Below are positions 1,100 to 32,339 of a DNA stretch of 32,339 nucleotides, one piece after another. The translations under genes and the position numbers were made by a program. The stretch spans positions 1 through 32,339 of IMG/VR virus record IMGVR_UViG_3300030098_002189. One strand, 5' to 3'. The notes under the pieces were generated by a model that was not told the DNA's origin, made no database searches, and saw nothing but the letters and a program-made list of their open reading frames with translations. Origin of the DNA: a virus (taxonomy: Duplodnaviria; Caudoviricetes). The stretch's first letter is position 1, and every line of letters begins with the position of its first letter.

Positions 1100-1543
1100 T
1101 TGTATATTGGCAACATGAATGATGATAGTAAAAAATATGTTGGTAAAGAAGCTATGAAAAAAAGAGTCAAGTATGATTCTATTGGCAAGATAGACCAAAA
1201 CTACAACAAGACTCCAAAAGCACTTGAACCAAAAAATACTGAAATGAGACAAGTGGCCAGAATGACTAGAAAGTCTTTGGCATATGCTTTGGAAGGACAA
1301 CCAGTAAAAATTAAAATGGCACTTGATATATTATTTGATGAAGATCCACGTGCTTACATAGATGCTATAGCTAAACTTATGAACTATGCTATACCAAAAC
1401 TTTCTGCAACAGAAATAAAAAAAGATACTGACACCAAAATAGAAATAAATTTAAATGAAGGTGCAACTCTTGATGATATTAAAAAACAGATTAGAGGGTT
1501 GGAAGATGCAGAAGATATTGACTACACAGAATTAGATGAATAA
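1100..1543 (+). CDS. terS: probable terminase small subunit (likely ATG start at 1115)
   Basis: ~145 aa, directly upstream of and overlapping terL. Basic N-terminus and helical core. Positional call. Confidence 0.6.
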   Translation: MYIGNMNDDSKKYVGKEAMKKRVKYDSIGKIDQNYNKTPKALEPKNTEMRQVARMTRKSLAYALEGQPVKIKMALDILFDEDPRAYIDAIAKLMNYAIPKLSATEIKKDTDTKIEINLNEGATLDDIKKQIRGLEDAEDIDYTELDE

Positions 1544-2981
1544 AAAACAAGCACTAAAGTTTGCCCTAAACAAGAAACTTTGTGAGATGAGTTTCTATGA
1601 GTTTTTTAAACAAGCATGGCATGTGGTAGAACCATCTATACCACTATCTACAAATTGGCATCATAAGTATATTTGTGATTTGTTGCAAAAAGAATGTGAG
1701 AGAATAATTGCACAAAAACCAAAAACAAAAGACATAATTATTAATGTACCCTTTCGTAGCACCAAATCTCTAATAGTAACTGTAATGTTTCCAGTATGGG
1801 CGTGGATTAAATCACCAAAACTAAGATTTATAACCTCATCCTACTCTGCAACACTATCTATTGAACTTGCAACAAAATCCAGAGATATAATTTTTAGCGA
1901 TTGGTTCAAAAGAAGATGGGGAGATGTTTTTCATATTAAGAAAGATCAAAACTTAAAAGAGAGATACGAAAATAATCATATTGGAATGAGAAGGGCAACA
2001 TCTGTAGGTGGTACAGTAACTGGGCAGGGGGGTGACTTTCTTATAGTAGATGACCCTCTATCACCACAAATGGCAAACTCTGCAACAGAAAGAGATAATG
2101 CAAATGAGTGGTATAGAACAACATTTTACTCAAGATTAAATCAAGCAGATATTGGAGTGAGAATAATTATAATGCAAAGAGTACATGAAGAAGATTTAAC
2201 TGGATTCTTAATAGACAGAGAGACAAGAATAAACTACAATCATGTTTGCATACCTGCAACTAACGAATCAGAAAAAAATATCAAACCTCCACTACTAAAA
2301 AAATATTATGATAAAGAAACAGGTTTATTTTGGACAGATAGATTTAACAAAAAAGTATTAGATGATTACAAAAGTGCTTTAGGTAGTTATGGTTATGCAG
2401 GACAGTTAATGCAAACACCAACACCACTAGATTCTGGTATGATACATAAAGATTGGTTTAAGATAGATAGATTTAGAGTAGATGAAGCAACAGTAAACTT
2501 TGTTATTGATCCTGCATATACTGCAAATCAAAAAAATGACCCCTCTGCTTTACTTGCTTACACCTACAAACACAATAGGTGGCAAATAATTGATTGTATA
2601 AATGTACATAAAGAGTTTCCAGAACTTGTAAAATTTATACCACAATGGGTACAAAAAAATGGTTATACCAACAAAAGCAGAATATTTGTAGAGCCAAAAG
2701 CATCTGGTAAGTCAATAGTACAAACACTAATTAGAGAGACTGGACTAAATGTCAAAGAAGATAAGCCACCAACAAAAGATAAAGTGGCTAGAGTAGCAGA
2801 TATTAGTGCATCACTTGAAAGTGGTAGGGTAAGTTTGTTAAATGGTGATTGGAATAGAGAGTTTTTAGATCAATTGACTAAATTTCCATCTGCAAAGCAT
2901 GATGATATGGTAGATTGCTTGGTTATGGCTATAAATAAAGAAATTTGGAGTAATAATGGTAAAATTGTTTTTTTTAGTTAA
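1536..2981 (+). CDS. terL: terminase large subunit
   Basis: Walker A-like INVPFRSTKS, Walker B LIVDDP, coupling motif IIIMQR, RNase H-like nuclease residues VIDPA, VEPKASG and HDDMVD. Confidence 0.95.
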   Translation: MNKKQALKFALNKKLCEMSFYEFFKQAWHVVEPSIPLSTNWHHKYICDLLQKECERIIAQKPKTKDIIINVPFRSTKSLIVTVMFPVWAWIKSPKLRFITSSYSATLSIELATKSRDIIFSDWFKRRWGDVFHIKKDQNLKERYENNHIGMRRATSVGGTVTGQGGDFLIVDDPLSPQMANSATERDNANEWYRTTFYSRLNQADIGVRIIIMQRVHEEDLTGFLIDRETRINYNHVCIPATNESEKNIKPPLLKKYYDKETGLFWTDRFNKKVLDDYKSALGSYGYAGQLMQTPTPLDSGMIHKDWFKIDRFRVDEATVNFVIDPAYTANQKNDPSALLAYTYKHNRWQIIDCINVHKEFPELVKFIPQWVQKNGYTNKSRIFVEPKASGKSIVQTLIRETGLNVKEDKPPTKDKVARVADISASLESGRVSLLNGDWNREFLDQLTKFPSAKHDDMVDCLVMAINKEIWSNNGKIVFFS

Positions 2982-11899: not shown

Positions 11900-14557
11900 A
11901 TGTCAAATACAGAAAAAATAATAGTTCAGGTTCAGGTCAAAGGACAAAGAGATTTAGATAATCTTAGCAAAACAACTAAAAAAGCAAGTAGGAGTGCAGG
12001 TGATTTGACAAAAGGTTTTGGCAGGATGGCTGCAGGGATAACATCTGCCGTAGTTGCTTTTAGAACAATAAATCAAGTCATAGGTGGTTCTATAAGATCT
12101 TTTAGAGATTTTGAATTTCAAATGGCTAAGGTTAGAGCAGTTACAAGTGCATCAGATAAAGATTTTAAATTACTTAGTGATACTGCAAAAGATTTAGGTC
12201 GTTCTACATTCTTTACTGCTCAACAGGTTTCTGAACTACAAACTAACTTTGGTAAATTAGGTTTTTCTACACAAGAAATATTAGATGCTCAAGAAGCAAC
12301 TCTTTTATTAGCAACAGCTACTGATACAGACTTAGCAAGAGCAGCGATAGTAGCAGGTGCAAGTGTTAGAGGTTTTGGGTTAGATGCAGAAGAAACAGGA
12401 AGAATAGTTGATGTGATGGCAGTAGCTTTTAGATCATCTGCTTTAGATATAGAAAAGTTCCAAACATCTATGACAAAGGTTGCTCCTATTGCAGCAGGAG
12501 CAGGTATATCTATGGAGTCAACTACTGCAGTAATGGCTTCTTTAACAGATGCAGGTATTGAAGCATCTATTGCAGGTACATCTTTGAGAAATATTTTCTT
12601 AAAAATGCAAGACTCATCATCTGATTTGTCAAAACATTTAGGTTTTACAGTAAACAGTTCAGATGATTTACAAAGAGCATTAACATTATTAAACTCTCAA
12701 GCACTAGACAATGAGGAGATTATGGGTCTGGTAGATATAAGACAAGTTGCTGCTTTTAGAACAATGATAGAGGGTTCTGATAGAATTAAAAATCTTACAA
12801 CAGATTTTAATGCTGCATCTGGAGAAGCAAGAAGAATGGCTAATATTGTTGGAGATACTTTAGAGGGTTCATTCAAAAGATTAAGGTCTGCAACTGAAGG
12901 TTTAGCCATAGAGTTAACACAAAAATTAGGAGGGGGATTACAAGATCTTGTAGATAAACTAGCTGACTTTTTTAATAGATTAACAGACAATTCTGATGGT
13001 TTAGTAAGATTGATTAGAAATATAGTACAGGTAACTAAATTTTTAGGTATATATGCTGCAGGATTAGCTACTGTTAGGGTGGCTACATTAGCATACAATG
13101 CTGTAACTTTTTTAGCAACAAATGCAACAAAATTATTTACAAAAGCATTAGCAAGAACAGGTATTGGTCTTGCAGTAATAGCACTAGGAAGTTTAATTGC
13201 AAAATTCACAGGTTTAGGAAAAGAAACAGATGAAGCAACAAAAAAACTTAAAGAGTTTGAAGAAGCACAAGCAAAAATATTAAAGAGAAATGAAAGATTT
13301 GATAGATTAATAAATCAACAAGTTGGAAATTCTATAGCGCAATCTAAAAAAATAATTGAAAATTTAAAGTTTGAAAAAGCAAAAAGAGAAGCTGTCTTAA
13401 TAGCAGCAAAAAAAGGTGCTACAGAATTAAATGATGAACAAAAAAAATTATTTGAAGATGAAATAAGAAGATTAAAAGAAAGGATAAGATTAGAAAAAAT
13501 AAATGGTCAAGAATTAGTTAAAAATAAAAAACAAGAAACAACTGCTGCTAGGTCTTTAATAGTTGAGCAAGAAAAATTATTAGATTTAGCAAACAGGATG
13601 CCAGAAACTACAGAAGCTGAAATTGCTGTAAAAAATAAAAAAATACAAAGTATAGAAGCAGAAATTGATAGATTAAAAAATCTAGGGATAGAACAAGAAA
13701 AGGTTAACAAGGCAAAAAGAGCAGAATTAGATGTTGATTTAGAACTTTTAGATTTTAAATCAGGTCAAATGAGAGAGGGAAATCTATCAGAACAACAAGC
13801 AGCAGAAGTCAGGCGAGAACTTATACAACAAGAAATTGATGACTCAAAAAGGTTGTTAGAACAATTAGTTATATCTGGAGAGCAAAGAGAGTTTTTAATG
13901 GCTAAAATAGTTCAGTTAGAAAAAGAATTAGGACAACAATCTTCAGAAGATAAAAAAGCAAGATTAGAAGAAGATATTGTAACTGCAGCACTATCTGGTA
14001 AAAATGCAGAAGAATCTGTAAAATCAGTTATAAGAGCATATATAATGGAATCTATAGCAGGACATATTAGAAGTATTATGACAAACCCTTTAATACCATT
14101 TCCAATAAATTTAGCATTAGCAGCAGGTGCAGGTATAGCTGTTGGTCAATTAGTAGACAAAGGTCTTTCATCAGTAAAATTTGCAAAAGGTGGTACAGTA
14201 GAAGAATTTGCAAATGGAGGTATGGTTCATGGTAAGTCACATGCTTTTGGTGGTGAGAAGTTTGCAGTAGGTGGTAGAGTGGTAGAACTAGAAGGAGGGG
14301 AAGCAGTAATAAACAAAAGAAGTACAGCAATGTTTAAAGGTCAATTATCAGCAATGAACGCAGCAGGAGGAGGTGTTAAGTTTGCAGATGGTGGTCTTTT
14401 AAATATGCCATCATTTACACAACAACAATTTAATGCTGTAGGTCAAAATCAAATGATGGGTGCTGTAAGTCAAGGTAGTAAAGTTGTTGTGGTTGAATCA
14501 GATATAACTCAAGCACAACAATCAGTAAGTGTGATAGAATCACAAGTAACATTTTAA
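11900..14557 (+). CDS. tail tape measure protein (TP901-family core)
   Basis: FEFQMAKVRAV, AKDLGRST.FTAQQV, G..ASIAGTSLRN and DTLEGS motifs; hydrophobic segments, coiled coil and C-terminal FAxGG motifs. Confidence 0.93.
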   Translation: MSNTEKIIVQVQVKGQRDLDNLSKTTKKASRSAGDLTKGFGRMAAGITSAVVAFRTINQVIGGSIRSFRDFEFQMAKVRAVTSASDKDFKLLSDTAKDLGRSTFFTAQQVSELQTNFGKLGFSTQEILDAQEATLLLATATDTDLARAAIVAGASVRGFGLDAEETGRIVDVMAVAFRSSALDIEKFQTSMTKVAPIAAGAGISMESTTAVMASLTDAGIEASIAGTSLRNIFLKMQDSSSDLSKHLGFTVNSSDDLQRALTLLNSQALDNEEIMGLVDIRQVAAFRTMIEGSDRIKNLTTDFNAASGEARRMANIVGDTLEGSFKRLRSATEGLAIELTQKLGGGLQDLVDKLADFFNRLTDNSDGLVRLIRNIVQVTKFLGIYAAGLATVRVATLAYNAVTFLATNATKLFTKALARTGIGLAVIALGSLIAKFTGLGKETDEATKKLKEFEEAQAKILKRNERFDRLINQQVGNSIAQSKKIIENLKFEKAKREAVLIAAKKGATELNDEQKKLFEDEIRRLKERIRLEKINGQELVKNKKQETTAARSLIVEQEKLLDLANRMPETTEAEIAVKNKKIQSIEAEIDRLKNLGIEQEKVNKAKRAELDVDLELLDFKSGQMREGNLSEQQAAEVRRELIQQEIDDSKRLLEQLVISGEQREFLMAKIVQLEKELGQQSSEDKKARLEEDIVTAALSGKNAEESVKSVIRAYIMESIAGHIRSIMTNPLIPFPINLALAAGAGIAVGQLVDKGLSSVKFAKGGTVEEFANGGMVHGKSHAFGGEKFAVGGRVVELEGGEAVINKRSTAMFKGQLSAMNAAGGGVKFADGGLLNMPSFTQQQFNAVGQNQMMGAVSQGSKVVVVESDITQAQQSVSVIESQVTF

Positions 14558-15649: not shown

Positions 15650-16684
15650 ATGAAAAACAACTGGTATAACATTCAAAATAAAGCAAATAAAGTTGCCGAA
15701 GTTTACATATTTGATGAGATAGGTTCGCATGGTGTAACTGCTCAAAAATTTATAGAAGAAATCAAAGGTTTAGGAGATAGACCAATCAATATACGAATAA
15801 ACAGTTTAGGTGGTGATGTTTTTAATGGCATGGCTATTCATAACGTACTAAAGAAAAGAACTTACAACACAACTGTATATATTGAAGGTATAGCTGCTAG
15901 TATAGCAACAATTATTGCACTTGGTGCAGATGAGGTTATAATGGCAGAAAATTCTTTATTTATGATACACAATGCGTGGGGAGGTGTTATGGGTGATGCA
16001 AAAGAAATGCGTAAATCTGCTGCTACACTTGAGAAAATATCTAACGAACTAACAGAAATATATGTAAAAAAGACAGGACTGTCATATGAAGCTATTTCAG
16101 AAATGATGGATAATGAAACTTGGTTGAGTGCAGATGAAGCGTATGAACTTGGCTTTGTAGATAGTATTTCAGATGCTATGAAGATTGCTGCTAAGTATGA
16201 TGTATCTAAATTTAAGAACATCACAAACGAGGAAATTCAAAACAAATTTAATAATAACATAAAAAACAAAAAAATGACTAACGAGTTAAAAGAATGGTTC
16301 AATAGTAAAGTCGAAGAAATTGTTGCAGCAGTAAAGTCTGATGTAAAGGTTTCTGAAGAAGTTGCTAATGACACAGAGATAACTGTTAATCTTGGAGATA
16401 ATGATGAAATTAAAAATAAAATTTCTGATTTTGAAGCTAAGAACATAGAGTTATCAGAAAAAATTACTTCATTAGAAAATGAATTAGTTAATGCTAAGGG
16501 CAGTAACGAAACTCTAACTAACGAAGTAGAAGCGTTAAACGCAAAAATCAACAAAGCAGATGCTAAAGGTACTGAAATAGAAACTGATGGTGACCCTGCA
16601 GTAGTTGAAAACAAAAAAGAAGATGCTAATGCAGGTTTTTATAATGCAATGGCTGAAAGAATAAGATTAAAATTTAATAACTAA
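15650..16684 (+). CDS. ClpP-like prohead protease with a C-terminal scaffold coiled coil
   Basis: INSLGGDV, AASIAT (catalytic Ser), MIHNAW (His) and ETWLSADEA..GFVD. C-terminal ~135 aa are acidic coiled coil. Confidence 0.92.
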   Translation: MKNNWYNIQNKANKVAEVYIFDEIGSHGVTAQKFIEEIKGLGDRPINIRINSLGGDVFNGMAIHNVLKKRTYNTTVYIEGIAASIATIIALGADEVIMAENSLFMIHNAWGGVMGDAKEMRKSAATLEKISNELTEIYVKKTGLSYEAISEMMDNETWLSADEAYELGFVDSISDAMKIAAKYDVSKFKNITNEEIQNKFNNNIKNKKMTNELKEWFNSKVEEIVAAVKSDVKVSEEVANDTEITVNLGDNDEIKNKISDFEAKNIELSEKITSLENELVNAKGSNETLTNEVEALNAKINKADAKGTEIETDGDPAVVENKKEDANAGFYNAMAERIRLKFNN

Positions 16685-22817: not shown

Positions 22818-23084
22818 ATGGAAATAGGCAAAAACACAAAAATTAGATTATCTTTAGAAAGTTTTGTGTCAATAGGTGCTACAATAGCCATTGTTGTGAC
22901 TATGTATTTGTCTTTAAAAAGTGAAATAGCCATAGCAAAAGAATTGCCAAAACCAGTTATTTCAGCAAAAGAATATGAATTGCACGATCAATTAATAAAA
23001 AATACAATAATTCAAACTCAAGAAGATATTAAAAAAATGCAAAAAACTTTAGATAGGATAGAAGATAAAATATATAATAGATGA
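22818..23084 (+). CDS. membrane-anchored coiled-coil protein of the lysis module
   Basis: One N-terminal TM segment and a C-terminal coiled coil; overlaps the holin start. Confidence 0.55.
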   Translation: MEIGKNTKIRLSLESFVSIGATIAIVVTMYLSLKSEIAIAKELPKPVISAKEYELHDQLIKNTIIQTQEDIKKMQKTLDRIEDKIYNR

Positions 23085-23473
23085 GTATATTATCAAAAAT
23101 ATTTAGTAGTGGTGCAACAGAACTAATAAAAGGTGTTGGTGATGTTGTAGATAACTTAACTACTACAGAAGAAGAAAGACTAGAAGCAAAAAGAAAAATT
23201 GAGCATATGGTAAGTAGCTTTGAAGCAGAAATGCAAAAAGAAGTTACTACAAGATGGACTCAAGATATGAATAGTGATAGTTGGTTGAGTAAAAATATAA
23301 GACCACTTGTGCTAATATTTTTAGTTTTTAGTACAGTTTTACTTATATTTATAGATGCAGGAGTTATAGATTTTGAAGTAAAAGCAAGTTGGGTAGATTT
23401 GTTACAACTTGTTTTAATAACTGTAATAGGTGCTTACTTTGGTGGTAGGTCATTTGAAAAAATAAAAAAATAA
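23081..23473 (+). CDS. holin (3TM / DUF3154-type)
   Basis: RW..DM.SDSWLSKNIRPL, hydrophobic helices and GAYFGGRSFEK; directly upstream of the endolysin. Confidence 0.85.
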   Translation: MSILSKIFSSGATELIKGVGDVVDNLTTTEEERLEAKRKIEHMVSSFEAEMQKEVTTRWTQDMNSDSWLSKNIRPLVLIFLVFSTVLLIFIDAGVIDFEVKASWVDLLQLVLITVIGAYFGGRSFEKIKK

Positions 23474-23474
23474 T

Positions 23475-23828
23475 ATGCCTTATAAATATTTTAAACTCAA
23501 AGAGTTTGCTTGTAAATGTGGTTGTAATCACAACAACATAAACAAAGAATTATTAGACATGCTTGAACAAGCTAGAAAAATGGCAAAATTACCATTTATT
23601 ATATCGAGTGGTTATAGATGTGAAAATCATCCAGAATCTATAAAAAATCCAACCTCATCACATATAAAGGGGTTAGCTGTAGATATAAAATGCAGCGACA
23701 GTAAAAGCAGAGCAATAATATTAGATGCTTTGGGGTTTGTCGGTTTTAGAAGGTTTGGGTTGCATGACTCATTCATACACGCTGACATAGACGAAAGTAA
23801 GTCAAATCCAGTTATTTGGCTTTACTAA
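23475..23828 (+). CDS. endolysin, peptidase M15A family (Zn peptidase)
   Basis: YF...EFACKCGC, ISSGYRC..H, SSH.KG.AVDI and FIHAD motifs. Confidence 0.9.
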   Translation: MPYKYFKLKEFACKCGCNHNNINKELLDMLEQARKMAKLPFIISSGYRCENHPESIKNPTSSHIKGLAVDIKCSDSKSRAIILDALGFVGFRRFGLHDSFIHADIDESKSNPVIWLY

Positions 23829-23862
23829 ATCTTTACTAATTATTAATTTAAAAATATTCAAA

Positions 23863-24087
23863 ATGGAAAATATATTCAATTCAGTAAATAGTTTTATAGG
23901 TAAAATGACAGCTTTATTTGTAGGTTTATTATCTTTTGGGGTAATGGCTGAAATTTTATTTGGCAGTCCTGTATTAGGTATGTCAGTAATAGCAAATGTA
24001 ATGGAAGTAATTAATTTATTAGGTGACAATGGTGTTGTAGGTTTGATAGCACTTGTCATATTGTATAATCTTTTAGAAAAAAAATAG
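23863..24087 (+). CDS. small integral membrane protein (74 aa)
   Basis: Almost wholly hydrophobic, with EILFG, SVIANV and G..GVVGLIAL motifs; A-rich start context. Confidence 0.75.
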   Translation: MENIFNSVNSFIGKMTALFVGLLSFGVMAEILFGSPVLGMSVIANVMEVINLLGDNGVVGLIALVILYNLLEKK

Positions 24088-24095
24088 TTTTTTGC

Positions 24096-24127
24096 TTGGA
24101 TAATTAATGTATATTTAATTATCTTTG
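24096..24127 (+). promoter_or_regulatory. Bacteroidota-type sigma-A promoter driving the candidate sRNA
   Basis: TTG (24096-24098), 21 nt, TATCTTTG (24120-24127). Confidence 0.6.
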
Positions 24128-24131
24128 CTCT

Positions 24132-24210
24132 GTTTTGTGATTCTCACAAAATTCTCAAAGTGTTTAGTTTAGTTTAGTTAAGAAAGGGGGGTTAATAACT
24201 TCCCTTTTTT
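24132..24210 (+). ncRNA. candidate small regulatory RNA (~80 nt)
   Basis: Lies between a promoter and a terminator with no credible ORF. 5' hairpin ttttgtga/tcacaaaa, single-stranded (TTTAG)3 region, 3' terminator. Confidence 0.55.
24183..24210 (+). terminator. intrinsic terminator
   Basis: Stem aaaggggggtt/aacttcccttt (two G-U pairs), 3-nt loop, T-run. Confidence 0.8.
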
Positions 24211-24266
24211 GTGCAATATATGGCTACTTTTTTGTATAGATTTGTTCAAATCAATAACTTGCAAAA

Positions 24267-25361
24267 ATGACAAAACAATATGGAAAGCGTTTAAGGTTGA
24301 GTGAGGAGGAGGTTGAAATGATCTTAGAAAGCAGGGCTGACAGCACAGCCAACATAAATGGAAACACAGCACTAGAAACACACTTATATGAGAGAGGTAT
24401 AGATAAAAAAGATGTAGTATCTGTAAAACATTGGCAATCTGCTAATGGTGAGTACAGATTTAGCATAGTAACAAAAGAAGATGTATCTATAGATAAAAAA
24501 GATATTTTAGATAATGTATGTACTCTAATAGAAAAACATTCACCATACTACAAAAAACCAAAAAGAAATAAAAATAAAGGAGGTCACTTATTAGTTATCA
24601 ATCCTGCAGATATACATATAGGTAAATATGCAAACAAAGTAGAAACTGGTAGTAACTATGATGTTGAAACTGCCTGTATGCGTGTTATAGAGGGCTTAGA
24701 AGGACTTTTAAGCAAGTCAGAAGGGTTTGGTATAGAAAGAATATTATTTTGCGTAGGAAATGATGTTTTGCATGTTGACAATGTTTACAATACAACTACA
24801 AAAGGTACTAATCAAGATGTTGATGGTAAGTGGTGGATGCACTTTGAGTTTGCTTTAGGATTATATGTAAAGTGTGTAGAGATTTTAAGAGAAGTTGCAC
24901 TTGTGGATGTGGTGCATAGTATGAGTAATCATGATTATCAAAGTGGCTTTCATTTAGCACATGCACTCAAAAGTTGGTTCAGAAAAGATAGTGAGGTTTC
25001 ATTTGATATTAGTGTAGCTTATAGAAAATATTATGAGTATGGCACAAATCTTATTGGTATAGAACATGGAGATGGTGCAAAAATGGATAACTTACCTTTA
25101 CTCATGGCACAAGAAAGACCAGAGATGTGGAGTAACACTAAATATAGATACTGGTATTTACATCACTTGCACCACAAAGTAAAACACAAATGGAGAGATG
25201 CAAAAGATTTTATAGGTGTTACAGTAGAATATATGAGATCACCTAGTGGTACTGATAGTTGGCACAGTAGAAAAGGTTTTACTGGCGTACCAAAAGCTGT
25301 TGAAGGTTTTATACACGAAAAAACAAGTGGTCAAGTGGCTCGTTTAGTACATTATTTTTAA
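24267..25361 (+). CDS. calcineurin-like metallophosphoesterase / nuclease
   Basis: Metal-binding motifs DIHIG, GNDVLH, SNHD, EHGD and HHLHH. TAGATTTG -7 element at 24237-24244. Confidence 0.8.
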   Translation: MTKQYGKRLRLSEEEVEMILESRADSTANINGNTALETHLYERGIDKKDVVSVKHWQSANGEYRFSIVTKEDVSIDKKDILDNVCTLIEKHSPYYKKPKRNKNKGGHLLVINPADIHIGKYANKVETGSNYDVETACMRVIEGLEGLLSKSEGFGIERILFCVGNDVLHVDNVYNTTTKGTNQDVDGKWWMHFEFALGLYVKCVEILREVALVDVVHSMSNHDYQSGFHLAHALKSWFRKDSEVSFDISVAYRKYYEYGTNLIGIEHGDGAKMDNLPLLMAQERPEMWSNTKYRYWYLHHLHHKVKHKWRDAKDFIGVTVEYMRSPSGTDSWHSRKGFTGVPKAVEGFIHEKTSGQVARLVHYF

Positions 25362-25497: not shown

Positions 25498-25563
25498 ATG
25501 TTTGGATGGGCAGTAATAACAGGAATTATCTTATGGATGGTTTCAGAATTAAAAGAAAATTAA
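25498..25563 (+). CDS. 21-aa hydrophobic peptide MFGWAVITGIILWMVSELKEN
   Basis: Read manually. First ATG after the promoter, with a very A-rich leader; single TM-like helix. Confidence 0.5.
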   Translation: MFGWAVITGIILWMVSELKEN

Positions 25564-25582
25564 TAACTAAAGTAAAACAATT

Positions 25583-25885
25583 ATGACAGAAAAAGAAAAA
25601 GATAAATTTTTAGATAATCTTTTTTCTAAAGAAACAGTGAGAGAAAAAATGATTAGAGAATTAAACGACCCTTATCACAATCCCTTTTCAGAAGGTTCTA
25701 TAGCATCAGAGGAATTTGAATTGGCAATGCAAGTAAGATCAGGTCATTATGAGTCAGGAAATCACGAAACAGACTATTACTTAGAACAATATTATGGTAG
25801 TGATTATGAGGACACTTATGGTATAGATTTTGAAGATGACCAATACGATTATGCAGAATATTGTAATTACAATTTAGGAAACTAA
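25583..25885 (+). CDS. acidic, Tyr-rich hypothetical protein
   Basis: ORF with a good start context; D/E/Y-rich C-terminal half. Confidence 0.7.
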   Translation: MTEKEKDKFLDNLFSKETVREKMIRELNDPYHNPFSEGSIASEEFELAMQVRSGHYESGNHETDYYLEQYYGSDYEDTYGIDFEDDQYDYAEYCNYNLGN

Positions 25886-25901
25886 CTAAAAACTAATAAT
25901 T

Positions 25902-26456
25902 ATGGGAAAAATGAAAGAAGAATTTGCAAAAATGCAACAAGAAACTATTAGTGCAATGTATGATGTTGCACAACAAAAGAGTATTAATCAATTAAACAAT
26001 AACAAAATGAGCAGAAAAACAAACAAAACAGAAACAAAAGAAACAGTTACAGAAACAAGAGAAGATGCTTTAAGAAGATTATTTAAAGAAAATGGTCTTG
26101 TTAAAGAAGATGTTTACAAAGACAAAAGAGGGTTTGTAATTATCACTAGGTCAGGTATTGACAAGATTGTAAGCAAAAAAGGTATTACAGTTGCTTATGA
26201 AGTTGTAGTAATGGACTTAGAAAAACCTGAAAAACCTAATGTAGTATTAAAAGCAGTTGCTACAATGAAGATCAACAAAACTGAAGTAAGAAACATGATG
26301 AGTTTTGGTGAAGCATCTGAAGCAAATCTTATGGGAGGAGGTAAAAAGTTTCCTGTAGCTATGGCAGAGAAAAGAGCAATGAGTAGAGTAGTATTAAAAA
26401 TTGCAGGATTCTATGAGCAAGGTGGTGTGTTTGGTCAAGATGAGATTGTTGACTAA
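25902..26456 (+). CDS. putative single-strand annealing protein/recombinase
   Basis: IITRSGIDKI...SFGEAS..N...AMAEKRAMSRVVLK.AG...FGQDE pattern; early-operon position upstream of an SSB-like gene. Possible second start at 26007. Confidence 0.5.
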   Translation: MGKMKEEFAKMQQETISAMYDVAQQKSINQLNNNKMSRKTNKTETKETVTETREDALRRLFKENGLVKEDVYKDKRGFVIITRSGIDKIVSKKGITVAYEVVVMDLEKPEKPNVVLKAVATMKINKTEVRNMMSFGEASEANLMGGGKKFPVAMAEKRAMSRVVLKIAGFYEQGGVFGQDEIVD

Positions 26457-26722
26457 TGTCAGGTGATTGGATTGATGATATTATTGATGGTGAGCCAACT
26501 CCTATAACTTATAGACAGTTGGTCATCATTGATAGTATGATTGATAGAACATCATTATCACAGCAAGAAAAAGATACAATACTTAGCAATATAAATGATT
26601 ATACAGAACTAGAAGCTGAAGAAATAGTAAAAAAAATATTCGAAAATGAAATCAAAACAGACCCACAAGACCAATACAAAAAAATGTGTCAAGACAATGT
26701 ATTTGGAAATAGAGGTTTTTAG
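26456..26722 (+). CDS. hypothetical protein
   Basis: Translationally coupled ORF (taatg overlap). Confidence 0.7.
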   Translation: MSGDWIDDIIDGEPTPITYRQLVIIDSMIDRTSLSQQEKDTILSNINDYTELEAEEIVKKIFENEIKTDPQDQYKKMCQDNVFGNRGF

Positions 26723-26912
26723 AAGCATAGATAATCCAGATTATTGTAATGTTTTTTTAAGTAAAAACTTTATAGGTCAAATAAGTTTGGCAGAATCTGC
26801 AGATTTTTTTACAAAAGATCAACTAATAGATTTTCATTTAAGAGATGTAAGTAAGTTTAAGGTATCTGAAGATGTGATAATTAAGAATATAAAAAAACCA
26901 AATAATGACTAA
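26646..26912 (+). CDS. hypothetical protein (likely later ATG, MYLEIEV..., near 26697)
   Basis: Fills the gap to the next gene; start uncertain. Confidence 0.55.
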   Translation: MKSKQTHKTNTKKCVKTMYLEIEVFRSIDNPDYCNVFLSKNFIGQISLAESADFFTKDQLIDFHLRDVSKFKVSEDVIIKNIKKPNND

Positions 26913-27153
26913 AAAATATTCTTTAGATAAAATAAGATGTGCCAGAAATGAGTTTGAAGCATTGCTAAGAATACAAGGAATATCTAATTTTAAGTTGTGT
27001 AAAATTATGGGTGTAAACTATGCTACAAGTAAAAAGTATATAGAAGAACCAACACTAATAAGATTTATACATGCTTATAGATTGTCAGTATTTATGGGTT
27101 TAGAAGTTCAAGATATAGTTGATACAATAGTGTATGACTTAAAACAAAACTAA
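26905..27153 (+). CDS. XRE/Cro-like helix-turn-helix protein
   Basis: GISNFKLCKIMGVNYATSKKY HTH-like pattern. Confidence 0.6.
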   Translation: MTKKYSLDKIRCARNEFEALLRIQGISNFKLCKIMGVNYATSKKYIEEPTLIRFIHAYRLSVFMGLEVQDIVDTIVYDLKQN

Positions 27154-27157
27154 AAAA

Positions 27158-27607
27158 ATGGAAGAAAAACAATTAAAATTGATGTACAGCGAAAATTATA
27201 AAGATATAATTTTACAAGAGATAGCTGATCTATACGATATAGATAATAAAGATTATATATGCAGTAATAATAGAAAGCAAAACTTAATGTACGCAAAAAG
27301 ACTTTTTGTTTATATTCTTAGGACTAAATTTGATTTAAGTTTAGTTGAGGTAGGTAAGATTGCAAACCTACATCATGCTTCTATAATACATCATGTAAAA
27401 GCATTTGAAATATTTAAAAACCTAAAAGGTTATAAAGAAAAAGAAATGTACAAGATTGTAGAAGAAAGAATAGAACAAACTCAAGTAGATGAAACAATTA
27501 GAATTTTACAACAACAAAGCAAAGAGATAGATAAAAAATTAAAACAATTGTATAACTTAAAAAACAAAGAAAATGTCAGAAACAAAAGAAAAAATTTATG
27601 TAGGTAG
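27158..27607 (+). CDS. protein with a DnaA C-terminal (domain IV)-like DNA-binding domain plus coiled coil
   Basis: S..RK.....AK....YI.R....LSL.EVG......HASIIH matches the DnaA domain IV signature. No AAA+ domain. Confidence 0.7.
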   Translation: MEEKQLKLMYSENYKDIILQEIADLYDIDNKDYICSNNRKQNLMYAKRLFVYILRTKFDLSLVEVGKIANLHHASIIHHVKAFEIFKNLKGYKEKEMYKIVEERIEQTQVDETIRILQQQSKEIDKKLKQLYNLKNKENVRNKRKNLCR

Positions 27608-27839
27608 TGGTATAGAAAAGTTTGATGGTAATTTAATTCAACAAACTATATGCCTGTCAGATTTAAGAGATAATGCAAAAGATCACATATTTAAATATGA
27701 AGGTAAGGAGTATATCAAATTAAAGACTGTCAAAAAAAGAGAAGTGGATCAGTATGGTAAAACCCACTATGTTGAGGTAGATACTTGGAAGCCAGAAAAA
27801 AAGAAGCAACAAACAGAGGATGATGATTTACCATTCTAA
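27573..27839 (+). CDS. putative single-stranded DNA-binding protein
   Basis: Small beta-rich protein (GKEYIKL...DQYGKTH) ending in the SSB-type acidic tail DDDLPF. Confidence 0.6.
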   Translation: MSETKEKIYVGSGIEKFDGNLIQQTICLSDLRDNAKDHIFKYEGKEYIKLKTVKKREVDQYGKTHYVEVDTWKPEKKKQQTEDDDLPF

Positions 27840-27990
27840 TTTATCTATACTGTCTATAATATTATTATGTATTTTACTTGGTAATGTTATGGGTGCAACT
27901 ATAGTTTTTGTAAAACAAAAAAATTATATTGCTGATTTAGAGAATGAGTTAGATAAAAAAGATGAGGTAATAAATAAACATTTAACATAG
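27820..27990 (+). CDS. small membrane protein (56 aa, MMIYHSNLSILSIILLCILLG...)
   Basis: Read manually. TM helix followed by a charged tail; overlaps the end of the SSB-like gene. Confidence 0.45.
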   Translation: MMIYHSNLSILSIILLCILLGNVMGATIVFVKQKNYIADLENELDKKDEVINKHLT

Positions 27991-28002
27991 ATAACATAGG
28001 TT

Positions 28003-28154
28003 AGAAAGGAGGTTGTAATTTATTTAATTTAATAATGGCGGTTATACTTTGAAACAATTACAGGTCACTATTGATAAACAACAAATAATTGAGTATTAAT
28101 AAAATTAATTTACAATTTAAACTTGATGGTGACTCCTTCTTTCTTTCCTTTTTT
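28003..28154 (+). ncRNA. candidate structured RNA (three-way junction) / attenuator
   Basis: P1 aagga/tcctt, P2 tgtaatt/aattaca and P3 gtcactattga/ttgatggtgac (three G-U pairs), followed by a pyrimidine/T tract. Confidence 0.5.
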
Positions 28155-28174
28155 ATAAACTAAAACTTTAAATT

Positions 28175-28384
28175 ATGGATGAACAAAAATTAAGACAAGA
28201 ACATTATTACTACAAAAGAAAAGCTAAATGGTGTGAGTTTTATGAACAATATATGGATAATCAAAGCATTACTCATATTAATGAAAAAGCAAAAGAATTT
28301 GCAGATCGCCAGTTAAAATCTTACGAAAATAATAAAGGTAAGAAAAATATATTATGGTTCTCTAATCAATTGTTTAGTAGATAA
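28175..28384 (+). CDS. hypothetical protein
   Basis: Good start context (taaactaaaactttaaattATG); abuts the initiator gene. Confidence 0.7.
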   Translation: MDEQKLRQEHYYYKRKAKWCEFYEQYMDNQSITHINEKAKEFADRQLKSYENNKGKKNILWFSNQLFSR

Positions 28385-28385
28385 C

Positions 28386-29018
28386 ATGGAACAACCAAAC
28401 TATTACGCAATCATATCTGCAGAAGTTAGATATGACAAAAATCTTACTGCCCATGCAAAACTATTGTATGCAGAAATAACTGCATTACTAAATATGAATG
28501 GTGAGTGCTTTGCTACTAACAGATACTTTTCAAAACTATATGGTAAAAGTATTGTAACTATTTCTAAGTGGATCAAAGAACTTATTGTAAATGGTTATAT
28601 ATTAACCACTTACACATACAAAGAGGGTACTAAAGAAATTGATAGGAGGTATATAAGTATTCTTAAAGGGGGTATTAAAGAAAAAGATAGGGAGGGTATT
28701 AAAGAAAAGTTTAAGGATAATAATACAAGTATTAATAATAATATTACATATAGTAATAGTAAAGGGCGTTTTAAAAAACCAACTATTATTGAAATTGCTA
28801 AGTATTGTAAAGACAGAGGTAATGGTTTAGATGCAGAAACTTTCTTTGATTTTTATGAAAGTAAAGATTGGAAAGTTGGTAAAAACAAAATGAAAAACTG
28901 GAAAGCATGTGTTAGAACTTGGGAGAAAAGAAACTCAACAAAAAGCATAAGCAAAGTACATATGCACTTAAGTTCGCATATGGAAGCAAAAGAATTATTA
29001 AAAAAAGGAAGAAAATGA
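28386..29018 (+). CDS. phage replication initiator (N-terminal winged HTH)
   Basis: YYAII.AEVRYDKNL...AKLLY.EI.AL...G.CFATN.YF, and C-terminal FKKPT..EI..YC...FFDFYES..W.VGKNKMKNWKA.VRTWE. Internal direct repeats. Confidence 0.85.
   Translation: MEQPNYYAIISAEVRYDKNLTAHAKLLYAEITALLNMNGECFATNRYFSKLYGKSIVTISKWIKELIVNGYILTTYTYKEGTKEIDRRYISILKGGIKEKDREGIKEKFKDNNTSINNNITYSNSKGRFKKPTIIEIAKYCKDRGNGLDAETFFDFYESKDWKVGKNKMKNWKACVRTWEKRNSTKSISKVHMHLSSHMEAKELLKKGRK
28625..28760. repeat. candidate replication origin: iterons plus an AT-rich tract inside the initiator gene
   Basis: GGGTATTAAAGAAAA at 28670-28684 and 28694-28708, with the imperfect copy GGGTACTAAAGAAAT at 28625-28639, followed by a very AT-rich stretch. 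Confidence 0.65.
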
Positions 29019-29377
29019 TAAAAACAAAAACAAGAGAAGAATTAGAAGATTTGTGTTTAGATCTATTAAGTAAAACCTATATTGAGTTAGGTCAACATAA
29101 TGTAGATGCAGAAACAAAAGTTATTATGGCACAAAGTTTAGCAGAAGATTTGAGTAAAACATATAAAAACTTTTACTTTCAAGATGCTGTCAATGCTTTT
29201 AGATTAGGAGTTAGAAGTCCACATAACAAAGATTTTATACATCTAAATGTACCAACATATATGAAGTGGTTGAGAAATCATCAGGAGTTGATATGGGATG
29301 CTAGAGCAAAAGTAAATGCAGGTGCTGATCCAAAAACAGTACCACATTTTAGACCAGAACCTAAATTGTTAAGATAA
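29015..29377 (+). CDS. hypothetical replication protein (possible helicase loader)
   Basis: ATG at 29015 overlaps the initiator stop (atga). Positional analogy to lambda P / SPP1 G39P only. Confidence 0.45.
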   Translation: MIKTKTREELEDLCLDLLSKTYIELGQHNVDAETKVIMAQSLAEDLSKTYKNFYFQDAVNAFRLGVRSPHNKDFIHLNVPTYMKWLRNHQELIWDARAKVNAGADPKTVPHFRPEPKLLR

Positions 29378-29414
29378 AATTATTATATATAAATTATTTT
29401 TATAAATTTGAGAA

Positions 29415-29504
29415 ATGTTTACAACAGTATTATTAATGATAGCTTCTTGTTTTTTTGGTTGGATGTATGGCTATAATCAAGCAGCAAAAAAATTTGATAA
29501 ATGA
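29415..29504 (+). CDS. 29-aa membrane peptide MFTTVLLMIASCFFGWMYGYNQAAKKFDK
   Basis: Read manually. ATG lies 4 nt after TAAATTTG (29403-29410); its stop overlaps the next start (atga). Confidence 0.5.
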   Translation: MFTTVLLMIASCFFGWMYGYNQAAKKFDK

Positions 29505-29692
29505 TTTTACTTTGGATTTTATTATGTATAGTTTTTGTTGTGTTTTTTGTAAGTATTTTATTACATTGCATTGCTTCTTTAGATGAAAGTAAGAATAATG
29601 AGAGGTTAGAATCAAATATAAAACAATATAAAAAAACTTTAACAGGTGGTTTGCATCATGATAGAATAAATGAAAAAAGAAAAACACAGTAA
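29501..29692 (+). CDS. small membrane-anchored protein
   Basis: N-terminal hydrophobic helix; coupled to its neighbours. Confidence 0.6.
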   Translation: MILLWILLCIVFVVFFVSILLHCIASLDESKNNERLESNIKQYKKTLTGGLHHDRINEKRKTQ

Positions 29693-29993
29693 ATATTATT
29701 ATGACTTTGATAGAAATAAATCAATAAACCCAAAAATGTTTATGTCAAAAGAAGAATTAGGAATAGATTATAAAGAAAACAAAACACCAAACTATTATAT
29801 AGGTAGTGTTTATGGTTATGAAGCAAGAAAGGTTATAGAAGATTTTGATCTAAGTTATAATTTAGGAACAGCAACAAGTTACATATTGCGTTGTTCAAGG
29901 AAGCATGAAACTGCTGTAGATTGCATACAAAAAGCTATAAATCATTTAGAGTTTGAGTTAGATAAAATTAAAAATGCCAAAGCCAATATTTAG
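29670..29993 (+). CDS. DUF3310-family protein
   Basis: PNYY...E...VIE.F.L.YNLG.A..YILR...K....D..KA..HL pattern. Confidence 0.75.
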   Translation: MKKEKHSKYYYDFDRNKSINPKMFMSKEELGIDYKENKTPNYYIGSVYGYEARKVIEDFDLSYNLGTATSYILRCSRKHETAVDCIQKAINHLEFELDKIKNAKANI

Positions 29994-30216
29994 AATATTT
30001 GCTACTTATAAAATTTATAATAAGGTAGGCGTTACAAGGAGACCAGTAGAAGGAGTGATAGATACTTTTGCAACAACAGATGATATAAACGAGATGAAAA
30101 AGGATGAAACAATAATGAATAGAATATTGTACTTGCATAAAAAAAAACCAGATAAATTTAAAGTAGAAATAATAAAAGTTGATATTGAAGATCAGTATGG
30201 CTTTACAAATTATTAG
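29974..30216 (+). CDS. hypothetical protein
   Basis: Overlapping, tightly packed ORF. Confidence 0.65.
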   Translation: MPKPIFRIFATYKIYNKVGVTRRPVEGVIDTFATTDDINEMKKDETIMNRILYLHKKKPDKFKVEIIKVDIEDQYGFTNY

Positions 30217-30218
30217 AT

Positions 30219-30491
30219 ATGCCAAAGATTAGAAAAATAAAATTAGAAGATAGAAAAGATATGAGAGGTGGAGGTTACTCCAGAAGAAAGTTTACAGAAG
30301 AAGAAGCACAAGCTATAAGAGATGAATATAACAATGCTACAGAAAAGATTACTATATCTTCTTTGGCTAGAAAGTACAATGTATCCCAACCATTGATGTA
30401 TCAATTAATAAAAAAGACAACCTATGCAGGGGGTGATGGGGGGTATAGGGGGGTACGCAGGGTAGGCAAATCTGTTTACAACCATCATTAA
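30219..30491 (+). CDS. helix-turn-helix DNA-binding protein
   Basis: KFTEEEAQAIR...ISSLARKYNVSQ.....LIK HTH, of the kind often appended to phage HNH nucleases. Confidence 0.7.
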   Translation: MPKIRKIKLEDRKDMRGGGYSRRKFTEEEAQAIRDEYNNATEKITISSLARKYNVSQPLMYQLIKKTTYAGGDGGYRGVRRVGKSVYNHH

Positions 30492-30838
30492 TGAAACCTG
30501 AAGCATCAGTACAAGCAGCGTTTTGTACTTACCTTAAATACAATTATCCTCAAATAAGATACTGTGCTTCTTTAGGAGGTATAAGAACCTCTATGAAACA
30601 AGCTGTGTTAGCTAAAAAAACAGGTTATGTCAAAGGATTTCCTGACATGCAAATACTAAAAGTCAATCACAAATATGCAGGATGTTTTTTAGAAATCAAA
30701 GCAGATAAAAAATCATATCCAACTAAAGAACAAAAAGAATGGGTTGCATATTTAAATGAAGCAGGTTACTTTGCAAAGGTTGTTAAAGGTCTTGATGAGT
30801 GCATTGAAACTGCTGACTGGTATTTACAAATTCCATAA
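30491..30838 (+). CDS. VRR-NUC family PD-(D/E)xK nuclease (probable Holliday junction resolvase)
   Basis: E...Q, G.VKGFPD, FLEIKA and EQKEW...L...GY motifs. Confidence 0.88.
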   Translation: MKPEASVQAAFCTYLKYNYPQIRYCASLGGIRTSMKQAVLAKKTGYVKGFPDMQILKVNHKYAGCFLEIKADKKSYPTKEQKEWVAYLNEAGYFAKVVKGLDECIETADWYLQIP

Positions 30839-30884
30839 CAAAAAAAATATTTTTTAAAAAAAATTTTTGTAAAAAAAAAAATAC

Positions 30885-30927
30885 GAAACTGCTGTGAAAC
30901 TGCTGTGAAACTGCTGTGAAACTGCTG
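30885..30927. repeat. 11-bp tandem repeat GAAACTGCTGT x3.9
   Basis: Units start at 30885, 30896, 30907 and 30918, in a non-coding region. Confidence 0.95.
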
Positions 30928-31033
30928 GGTCTGCTGTTATCGTGTGCGTGTATGTGCGTTCTATATAAGGCGTTGATTCTCAAGTTATTAACAAAATAAT
31001 TGTTAATTTATTTTTTAACATTTTTTTGTTTTT

Positions 31034-31065
31034 TTTGTTGAATATTAAAAAAAGTTTTATATTTG
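31034..31065 (+). promoter_or_regulatory. consensus Bacteroidota promoter for the small early genes
   Basis: TTTG (31034-31037), 20 nt, TATATTTG (31058-31065); ATG at 31097. Confidence 0.75.
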
Positions 31066-31096
31066 CATCATATTAATAATTTAAACACTTTAAAAA

Positions 31097-31300
31097 ATGA
31101 CAAAAACAGAATTTAAACAACTGCAAAAAATATCAGATTATATAAATAAATATTATAATTTAAACACATATGTAAATGAATATACACACTCAATTTTTGT
31201 AAGTGTATGGAATAAAAATTCATCTACCAGTATTAATTTAGAAATTTCTAAAAAAGAAATTGAATTTTTCAGAAAAGAATTTAACAACACTAAAAAATAA
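31097..31300 (+). CDS. small hypothetical early protein
   Basis: First ORF after the promoter. Confidence 0.7.
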   Translation: MTKTEFKQLQKISDYINKYYNLNTYVNEYTHSIFVSVWNKNSSTSINLEISKKEIEFFRKEFNNTKK

Positions 31301-31304
31301 AATT

Positions 31305-31481
31305 ATGAACACAAAAAGATTAAAAGAATATTTAAAAGAAATTGACAGATTAAAAAAATTAGATTGGAATACTTCAATAAAAGTAAATCAAGAATTTAAA
31401 GATCGTAAAGAACAGAAAGAAAGAAACAAAAAAACAAATTTTGATAAAAGGTTAATTAATTATATTACTAACTTAAAATAA
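31305..31481 (+). CDS. small basic hypothetical early protein
   Basis: ATG at 31305 with an A-rich leader is preferred over the track TTG at 31260. Confidence 0.6.
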   Translation: MNTKRLKEYLKEIDRLKKLDWNTSIKVNQEFKDRKEQKERNKKTNFDKRLINYITNLK

Positions 31482-31488
31482 ATAAATT

Positions 31489-31701
31489 ATGAAAAATTAC
31501 GATAAATATAAATTAGCAACGCCTGAAGATTACGGTGGCGATTACGTTTCGAATTGTTGCGGTGCAAGGGTTGATTATTCTGATCGTTGTCAGTATTGTT
31601 TCGAATATTGCGAACCAGTAGAAGATTATGAATTTGAAGCAATAAAAAAAGAAAATTATCTTGAATCAAGAGAAGATGCAAGAAGAGAAGAACGTTACTA
31701 A
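31489..31701 (+). CDS. small zinc-finger-like protein
   Basis: SNCCGA......RCQYCFEYC cysteine pattern. Confidence 0.75.
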   Translation: MKNYDKYKLATPEDYGGDYVSNCCGARVDYSDRCQYCFEYCEPVEDYEFEAIKKENYLESREDARREERY

Positions 31702-31725
31702 ATTAATAACACTAAACACAAAAAA

Positions 31726-31911
31726 ATGAAATTTCAAATAAAAATTATATTAGATGTATCAAAACAAAGCGTAAAAGATATGAAACGTAACGCAGTTAAC
31801 TATATTATAGAAGATATAGAAGATAAATGTTTGTATATAGAAGATATTAAAATAATTAAAACTAATAAAAAAAACACTAAAAAATTAACAACACTAAACA
31901 CAAAAAAATGA
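31726..31911 (+). CDS. small hypothetical early protein
   Basis: Begins in a repeated leader and reads through the next copy of that leader. Confidence 0.6.
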   Translation: MKFQIKIILDVSKQSVKDMKRNAVNYIIEDIEDKCLYIEDIKIIKTNKKNTKKLTTLNTKK

Positions 31912-32339
31912 AACTACTAACACAAAACAGAAAATTAAAAAAGACATCTTTATTAAATAACGCTAGAGTATTGAATTTCAGTATTCCAGCTTATAAAGAT
32001 TTGAACGGCAAGTTAACTTGTCCATTTGCTAAAGACTGTATAAAATATTGTTACGCTCAAAGAGGTAACTATAGATTTAGCAACGTAAAAAAGGGCCAGC
32101 AGAAACGCTACGAATTAACAAAAACAAATGATTTTGTTAAAATTATGAACGCCAACATACTACTAGAACGGCCAACGCACGTACGCATCCACGATGCAGG
32201 AGATTTTTATAGTATTGAATATTTGAACAAATGGATTCAAATAGCTAAAGATAACAAAGATGTAATTTTTTATGCTTATACAAAATCAATCAAATTTTTT
32301 AAACTTAACAAAAAAATGTCTTATGAATTTTTATTACCT
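31908..32339 (+). CDS. GP88-family protein, truncated by the window end (at least 144 aa)
   Basis: Absent from the ORF track because it has no stop. Manual translation gives MKLLTQNRKLKK...FSIPA...TCPFAKDCIKYCYAQRG...RIHDAGDFYS...W..IA.....FYAYTKS. Confidence 0.75.
   Translation, partial: MKLLTQNRKLKKTSLLNNARVLNFSIPAYKDLNGKLTCPFAKDCIKYCYAQRGNYRFSNVKKGQQKRYELTKTNDFVKIMNANILLERPTHVRIHDAGDFYSIEYLNKWIQIAKDNKDVIFYAYTKSIKFFKLNKKMSYEFLLP

Follow-up and report, generated by a model that had tools for sequence, protein, structure and literature searches.

The virus contig analysed here (the window, a stretch of 32,339 nucleotides that is the entire contig, with an estimated completeness of 95%) probably carries, at the end of its late block, a conserved element directed against translation start sites; comparison among related genomes points to the phage's own early genes as its targets, and its transcription is predicted. 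The unit (24096-24211; Table 1) probably stands alone and is non-coding. From comparison of sequences, we lean towards the view that it encodes an anti-start-site sRNA resembling FopS and GibS, which would act on the phage's own early and replication genes to achieve their lytic shut-off. The role of this sRNA would probably be that of a shut-off timer. An earlier, sequence-only reading had proposed a trans-acting anti-leader sRNA that dampens early phage genes and/or host or competitor mRNAs. The conserved non-coding unit and the complementarity of its tract to the phage's own early starts bear out this proposal, whereas its host part, the (TTTAG)n repeat and the supposed full novelty of the system are not supported in the form given.

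All genes with family matches (PHROG/Pfam) lie on the + strand. On the 3' side of the exonuclease gene are encoded a DnaA-type HTH protein, a replication initiator, a VRR-NUC protein and many small ORFs; within the early block, HTH proteins are encoded at 27158, 28386 and 30219. No integrase or repressor was found among the window's PHROG/Pfam matches. Throughout, "early" denotes positions 25498-32339 plus 1-600 and "late" the structural block, as assigned from what the genes encode and where they lie, starts being called by a simple procedure. Leaders in the window are rich in A and poor in G, and TAnnTTTG boxes, the Bacteroidota -7 consensus of the sigma-ABfr promoter (accessible text of PMC6847099), precede the early block. 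Because of these leaders and boxes, the window likely belongs to a group of uncultured phages having marine Bacteroidota as hosts. This assignment is drawn from promoter and leader type only, since a search for the exonuclease in 68 genomes of the order of one stand-in host (see below) gave no match at E 1e-20. Four seawater RNA runs, taken as assembled contigs, contained 97-99% pieces of neighbouring genes and left 24040-24260 uncovered, a short RNA being unlikely to assemble.

Table 1. Features of the window that are relevant to the unit and to its candidate targets.
Feature	Position	Strand	Basis or remark
Late block: terminase, tape measure, protease, portal, holin, endolysin	1536-23828	+	family matches
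Late-block end, upstream of unit: holin 23081-23473, endolysin 23475-23828, 74-aa ORF 23863-24087	23081..24087	+	
Possible -33 element TTG	24096..24098	+	21 nt ahead of -7 box
sigma-ABfr -7 box TATCTTTG	24120..24127	+	Bacteroidota consensus (accessible text of PMC6847099)
Predicted ~78-nt non-coding RNA	24132..24210	+	start placed 4-5 nt past -7 box (spacing from accessible text of PMC6847099)
5' hairpin, 8 bp + terminal G-U, sequence varies among relatives	24132..24152	+	folding
Predicted unpaired U-rich tract, candidate seed	24153..24178	+	reverse complement of ACTAAAC/TAAACAC-type early leaders
Intrinsic terminator-like hairpin	24179..24211	+	core 24186-24204; six T at 24205-24210
Second -7 box TAGATTTG	24237..24244	+	sequence
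Downstream neighbour: 364-aa PHROG 704 'DNA repair exonuclease'	24267..25361	+	anchor for finding relatives
Candidate target: leader of 184-aa gene at 25902	25883..25890	+	duplex -17.1 kcal/mol
Candidate target: leader of 69-aa gene at 28175	28156..28164	+	directly upstream of replication initiator 28386-29018
Candidate target: leader of 67-aa gene at 31097	31082..31091	+	10-nt match
Candidate target: leader of 61-aa gene at 31726	31711..31719	+	best duplex, -18.3 kcal/mol
Candidate target: leader of GP88-family gene at 31908	31893..31901	+	duplicate of 31726 leader

The architecture first described, namely TTG-N21-TATCTTTG at 24096-24127 followed by an 8-bp hairpin, a tract and a terminator, has correct coordinates and agrees with the computed fold. 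In the predicted fold, the open tract lies between the hairpin and the terminator; its z is -3.84, and 0/200 shuffles were as stable. The stretch originally taken as unpaired, 24157-24181, had to be shifted: the tract is open, but its last three nucleotides (24179-24181) pair in the extended terminator stem, leaving 24153-24178 free. The unit's terminator is the first one found on the + strand past the lysis genes and, because no other was found from 23700 on, late transcripts would end at it. The TAGATTTG box is likely the promoter of the downstream exonuclease gene. Since this second promoter-like box precedes the exonuclease and since the gene directly upstream of the unit varies between relatives, the unit is separable from both neighbours.

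Relatives were found via the exonuclease, and the best 80 of 385 were kept. Among these, the architecture that the sequence-only reading had proposed to look for in related phages is present in 76/76 loci having at least 200 nt upstream, in the form of 37 variants; 26/26 records contain one strong unit match each. Two-sided changes occur in nine pairs, against 0/500 shuffles, although kinship inflates this control. In the 5' hairpin, 92% of cells are paired and 4/7 pairs show two-sided changes; the corresponding values are 99.5% and 5/15 for the terminator, the best-conserved part of the unit. A perfect TAnnTTTG is found at the place equivalent to 24120 in 32/37 variants (background 5% per 60 nt) and, in the remaining 5/37, a second box located in the hairpin arm is perfect, which brings the perfect -7 boxes to 37/37. 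Hence, the promoter claimed from the window is well kept in its -7 box, but a -33 TTG at 18-22 nt occurs in just 9/44 variants. At the position of the TAGATTTG box, 6/37 variants have a perfect box and 28/37 one that is close to the consensus. A second perfect TATCTTTG is also observed in the 3' arm of the 5' hairpin in 19/37 variants, including all five with a degenerate first box; the loci concerned include L011, L016, L024, L071, L077 and other clade B loci. This hairpin-arm box could yield a shorter, FopS-like RNA.

The tract itself has a mean identity of 0.88 versus 0.67 at synonymous third positions (31 clade-B-type variants). In most relatives, it is the mirror of AAAACTATAAACAATGAAAACA, that is of a leader, the AUG and two codons, reaching codons 2-3. 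The anti-AUG is kept in 26/37 variants and lost in the window's clade. Conservation of the (TTTAG)n tract, which had been anticipated, is not observed: the third TTTAG is specific to the window and two units are present in 8/8 loci of the same type. (TTTAG)n is the form that the leader mirror takes in one clade. The view that the unit contains no credible ORF is upheld, in that, on the opposite strand, no conserved ORF begins at the mirrored AUG (4-137 aa, all three frames; AUG missing in 11/37). Beyond the terminator, no opposite-strand TAnnTTTG was found within 300 nt in 32/37 variants, nor in the window. A type I antitoxin, or an RNA cis-antisense to an overlapping gene, was also considered and fails on both the conserved opposite-strand ORF and the opposite-strand promoter.

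Could the terminator alone matter, the tract being a U-rich tail at the 3' end of the late operon, or else the relic of an inverted gene start, with no role in pairing? The superior conservation of the terminator and the weakness of the -33 box go in this direction, as do the ease with which 8-10-nt matches arise in AT-rich DNA and the finding that, in other contigs, such a tract pattern frequently turns out to be where a genuine gene on the opposite strand begins. We nevertheless regard this explanation as quite improbable, because the promoter box, the covarying hairpin and the tract all persist despite turnover of the upstream gene, because the tract varies less than neutral sites, and because neither the early-over-late bias nor the clade reciprocity presented below is expected of a tail.

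Within the window, 12/12 of the leader matches listed by the sequence-only reading are present (180, 3483, 14557, 16678, 25470, 25564, 25883, 27147, 28156, 31082, 31711 and 31893). Five more matches of at least 8 nt had been omitted (644, 6507, 11675, 13032 and 15248) and lie outside curated ATG leaders. Overall, 12/17 of the + strand matches (at least 8 nt to the tract complement) fall in -25..-1 leaders, which represent 4.1% of the window, as compared with 1/15 in a same-sense control. An 8-mer is present in 11/54 leaders; when the leaders were dinucleotide-shuffled 1000 times, the average was 3.9 and the count never exceeded 10. With dinucleotide-shuffled seeds, 190/1000 reach at least 12 leader sites, none of them being equally selective. 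The expected enrichment of the seed in leaders is therefore seen in the concentration of matches over shuffles, but not in the mean duplex energy, which over all 54 start regions does not differ from background (p 0.38). The perfect pairings are AU-rich and 8-10 nt long.

The matches at 31711 and 31893 share one duplicated leader (repeat D3); the two copies (31688-31744 and 31870-31926) consist of 57 nt of leader and gene start, are 81% alike and precede two small early genes. The leader of the 25902 orthologue has a match of at least 9 nt to its own tract in 13/22 genomes. The 184-aa protein encoded there (25902-26456) has no Pfam/PHROG match and its atlas matches are unnamed, apart from a weak, sub-0.9 atlas lead to Sak-type annealing proteins; its gene has a possible second start at 26008, with an A-rich leader of its own. 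The 69-aa gene (28175-28384) occurs in the window and G003 only. It separates the matched leader from the replication initiator, ends 1 nt before the initiator start and is likely translationally coupled to it.

The comparison was then extended to 23 related records, in which starts were called by a composition-only rule. With the window included, 21 genomes having at least 14 early genes each were counted (G017, G025 and G026 were dropped for having fewer). Matches of at least 9 nt to a genome's own tract were found in 89/441 early versus 5/511 late start regions. Shuffling the leaders or the tracts gave about 30 early matches and at most 47, although several single genomes are not above their own shuffles. 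The bias persists when equally A-rich leaders are compared, with 15/51 early versus 0/49 late in clade A and 75/203 early versus 4/203 late in clade B. The matches span -15..+5 around the starts. In this region, adenines at -3, -6, -12 and -13 tune or promote initiation, as far as the accessible text of PMC6847099 describes.

In the exonuclease tree, the window, G003, G004, G025 and G026 form one clade (support 94/89), with a tract of the ACTAAACAC type, and the tract type of most other genomes is ACTATAAAC. Over 10 nt, tract A matches 9/80 own-clade versus 1/341 other-clade early leaders, and tract B matches 52/341 own-clade versus 1/80 other-clade early leaders. Judged by the tree, this reciprocal preference is one firm independent contrast. 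Two minor tract types lean toward their own leaders too, in small numbers. The most recurrent long match is that of the replication-initiator leader, which matches its own tract over 10-15 nt in 14 of the 20 other genomes in which it was located outside the arrangement of the window and G003; in these two, the match sits in the leader of the 69-aa gene ahead of the initiator. At the genome level, covariation is loose, as illustrated by G008, whose initiator leader matches the tract of other genomes over up to 21 nt and its own over 12.

A motif common to the early leaders might also be the binding site of a protein. T4 RegA is a translational repressor protein that turns down many early mRNAs at AU-rich start regions; in the scheme that we favour, an RNA would do that job. 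In the alternative, the leader motif would be a DNA operator for an early HTH protein, or a RegA-like RNA site, and its inverted copy a further site or a decoy. In favour of such a scheme, a co-evolving DNA site would equally yield clade reciprocity, the motif is clade-specific and shared by early leaders, HTH proteins are encoded in the early block, and the U-rich FopS does bind the protein RbpB (accessible text of PMC11697453). We hold it to be very unlikely, however, because the mirror crosses the AUG into codons 2-3 in most relatives, as an operator need not do, and because the tract lies between a promoter and a terminator, with covariation of the RNA type.

The sRNA to which the unit can best be compared is FopS of Bacteroides (RF04319). 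According to the accessible text of PMC11697453, FopS has a canonical promoter, starts with a single-stranded seed at its 5' end, finishes with a terminator and blocks initiation beside the start codon. True FopS copies examined here are laid out in the same way as the unit, with a -7 box, then an anti-AUG tract, then a terminator. FopS and the unit share a TAnnTTTG promoter (37/37 variants in the case of the unit), a U-rich tract against the leader and AUG that is single-stranded in FopS and predicted to be unpaired in the unit, and an intrinsic terminator. However, the seed of FopS is at the 5' end without an upstream stem, whereas the unit has a covarying hairpin ahead of its tract; FopS has 12-15 paralogues per genome, the unit is single-copy; and the unit, which is phage-borne, has another seed and another terminator. 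FopS targets host SusC transporters while the predicted targets of the unit are the phage's own early genes. The RF04319 covariance model (cut-off 56 bits), with which true FopS copies score 64-80 bits, gave no match in the window (E up to 10), in L024 or in the unit of three relatives. Accordingly, the unit would act as FopS does but is not a FopS member. In GibS of B. thetaiotaomicron, a long AU-rich seed that lacks structure pairs with the region of the start codon (accessible text of PMC7366714). According to the same text, it differs from the unit in being longer, with two seeds, another promoter type and host metabolic targets. As regards Rfam, the window has 0 matches at the gathering score and the unit gets only sub-threshold, unrelated ones. 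In view of FopS and GibS, which work alike, the earlier suggestion of an undescribed kind of regulatory system does not wholly stand.

By the same analogy, the unit might be a real, FopS-like sRNA used mainly against mRNAs of the host or of competing phages, its match to the phage's own leaders reflecting a shared strong-leader sequence. Four Flavobacteriia genomes (40 stretches, 619 start regions) served as stand-ins for the phage's true host. The window's tract matches 15/80 own early leaders versus 4/619 stand-in start regions, and the clade B tract 81/341 versus 25/619 (4%). Per gene, own early leaders are therefore matched far more often, and host mRNAs look like poorer targets than early phage genes in the four stand-in genomes, which does not favour the host part of the sequence-only proposal. 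In addition, true FopS does not favour the early leaders of the phages (7/341 + 4/80, versus 32/619 in the stand-ins). Yet 1-4% of host genes would still be many sites and, genome-wide, the frequency of 25/619 would outnumber the 1-7 sites of a phage. The clade B tract also resembles the FopS seed, FopS itself has been noted in one Bacteroides phage (accessible text of PMC11697453), and look-alikes without self-preference exist in unrelated phages. On balance, we consider a mainly outward role unlikely.

These look-alikes came from a pattern scan that gave 73 viral loci, about ten of which come from unrelated phages and combine a promoter, an anti-start tract and a terminator. Unrelated viral contigs in which a -7 box, an anti-start tract and a terminator were noted are L089, L100, L111, L123, L126, L129, L133, L138, L144, L175, L214 and L227. 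In five unrelated phages with the architecture, three of whose records are incomplete and one of whose tracts was cut wrongly, self-targeting concerned 0-4 out of 54-86 start regions, a yield that does not exceed that of cross comparisons. As far as sequence comparison goes, self-targeting has been seen only in the window's phage group. In a looser viral scan, promoter and terminator were found in 20/120 loci, 17 of which belong to the window's own family, and a pattern scan of genomes found them in 2/120 loci. The R1 model did not detect the look-alikes in unrelated phages, and in five Bacteroidota genomes (150 candidates scored per genome) it found no clear copies (best E 0.018). Other arrangements were noted in passing. 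L200 (~1480-1580, minus strand) and L239 show a tRNA-like 3' end, then an anti-AUG tract, then a terminator, which suggests that tRNA trailers are another source of anti-start RNAs. L280 and L367, from Prolixibacteraceae and Bacteroidales genomes, have a FopS-like -7 box, anti-AUG tract and terminator outside Bacteroidaceae.

Among cultured phages, the holin-amidase-exonuclease order of the window recurs in Flavobacterium phage snusmum6-1. An inverted, unannotated Muminvirus look-alike is located at the amidase-exonuclease junction (L493, NC_048841.1, 1-45 + 39337-39365, minus strand). On the minus strand, the first 45 nt of snusmum6-1 contain a -7 box, 5 nt and an anti-AUG leader mirror, leading to a two-way terminator at the other end of the record, an adjacency deduced from circularity. 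The stretch is 98-100% identical in 46 records. Its preference for early genes is weak in snusmum6-1 (6/49 versus 1/23). In Elizabethkingia phage TCUEAP1, the exonuclease is inside an operon and no such unit was found directly upstream.

In the mechanism that we favour, host polymerase would transcribe the ~78-nt RNA from the host-type promoter, and the 3' end of late transcripts stopping at the unit's terminator would provide a second supply. The open tract would pair with A-rich leaders over the adenines at -3, -6, -12 and -13 and block ribosome loading; in clade B and in most relatives, the pairing would also cover the AUG. The RNA would build up with genome copy number and late transcription. 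As a result, early and replication genes would be shut off with a delay, the initiator leader and the 25902 gene being the recurring targets. It can further be proposed, although we would put this at somewhat less than an even chance, that early and replication genes are marked by a leader tag particular to their clade, that one co-evolving anti-tag RNA silences the whole early regulon, and that this system recurs, inverted, in Muminvirus. Placed at the end of the lysis operon, the anti-tag RNA would be boosted by late transcription.

The same pairing might instead serve a carrier state or the exclusion of related phages, through copy-number control exerted on the replication initiator. The initiator leader is indeed the most recurrent long match, and a host-type promoter would be active without phage proteins. 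However, besides the missing integrase and repressor matches, no conserved long opposite-strand ORF was found in 10 near-complete relatives, and the cultured Flavobacterium phages bearing the look-alike are reported as lytic only in the accessible text of PMC7077304. We therefore give this use of the pairing very little probability.

Several phage-encoded RNAs are known to act by pairing, among them c4 of P1/P7 and CI RNA of P4. Lambda OOP and PreS and VP882 VpdS likewise regulate phage or host genes via pairing (accessible part of bioRxiv 2024.10.31.621285). All these RNAs come from temperate proteobacterial phages and act on one or a few targets, or on host ones, whereas in the present case one tract mirrors a motif of many early genes, no lysogeny genes were found and the phylum is SD-free. 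An immunity RNA of the P1 c4 or P4 CI kind was rejected for the window, given 0 Rfam matches at the gathering score and no integrase or repressor match. A literature search, mostly without subscription papers or preprint supplements, retrieved no paper describing an sRNA that a Bacteroidota phage directs against the leaders of its own early genes.

If the preferred reading is true, the early-to-late switch of lytic Bacteroidota phages would be timed by an RNA repressor. One RNA reading a shared leader tag would constitute a compact, regulon-wide switch for small phages having no recognisable repressor or polymerase of their own. The FopS/GibS principle would then extend from the metabolism of gut Bacteroides to phage development, and the Shine-Dalgarno-free initiation of the phylum would be exploited by a phage RNA. 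The reciprocal tracts of clades A and B offer a ready specificity contrast, and the look-alike in cultured Flavobacterium phages makes expression testable.

Finally, minus-strand ORFs of 120-170 aa are present opposite the tape measure and protease genes (12697-13209, 15862-16224 and 16237-16614); from their position, they are probably shadows, and the 10 near-complete relatives have no conserved counterpart. Two very AT-rich non-coding stretches of the window, 734-842 and 30830-31062 (repeats D7 and D10), are 76-88% alike and precede TAnnTTTG boxes at 836/844 and 31058, respectively; they are likely duplicated promoter regions.
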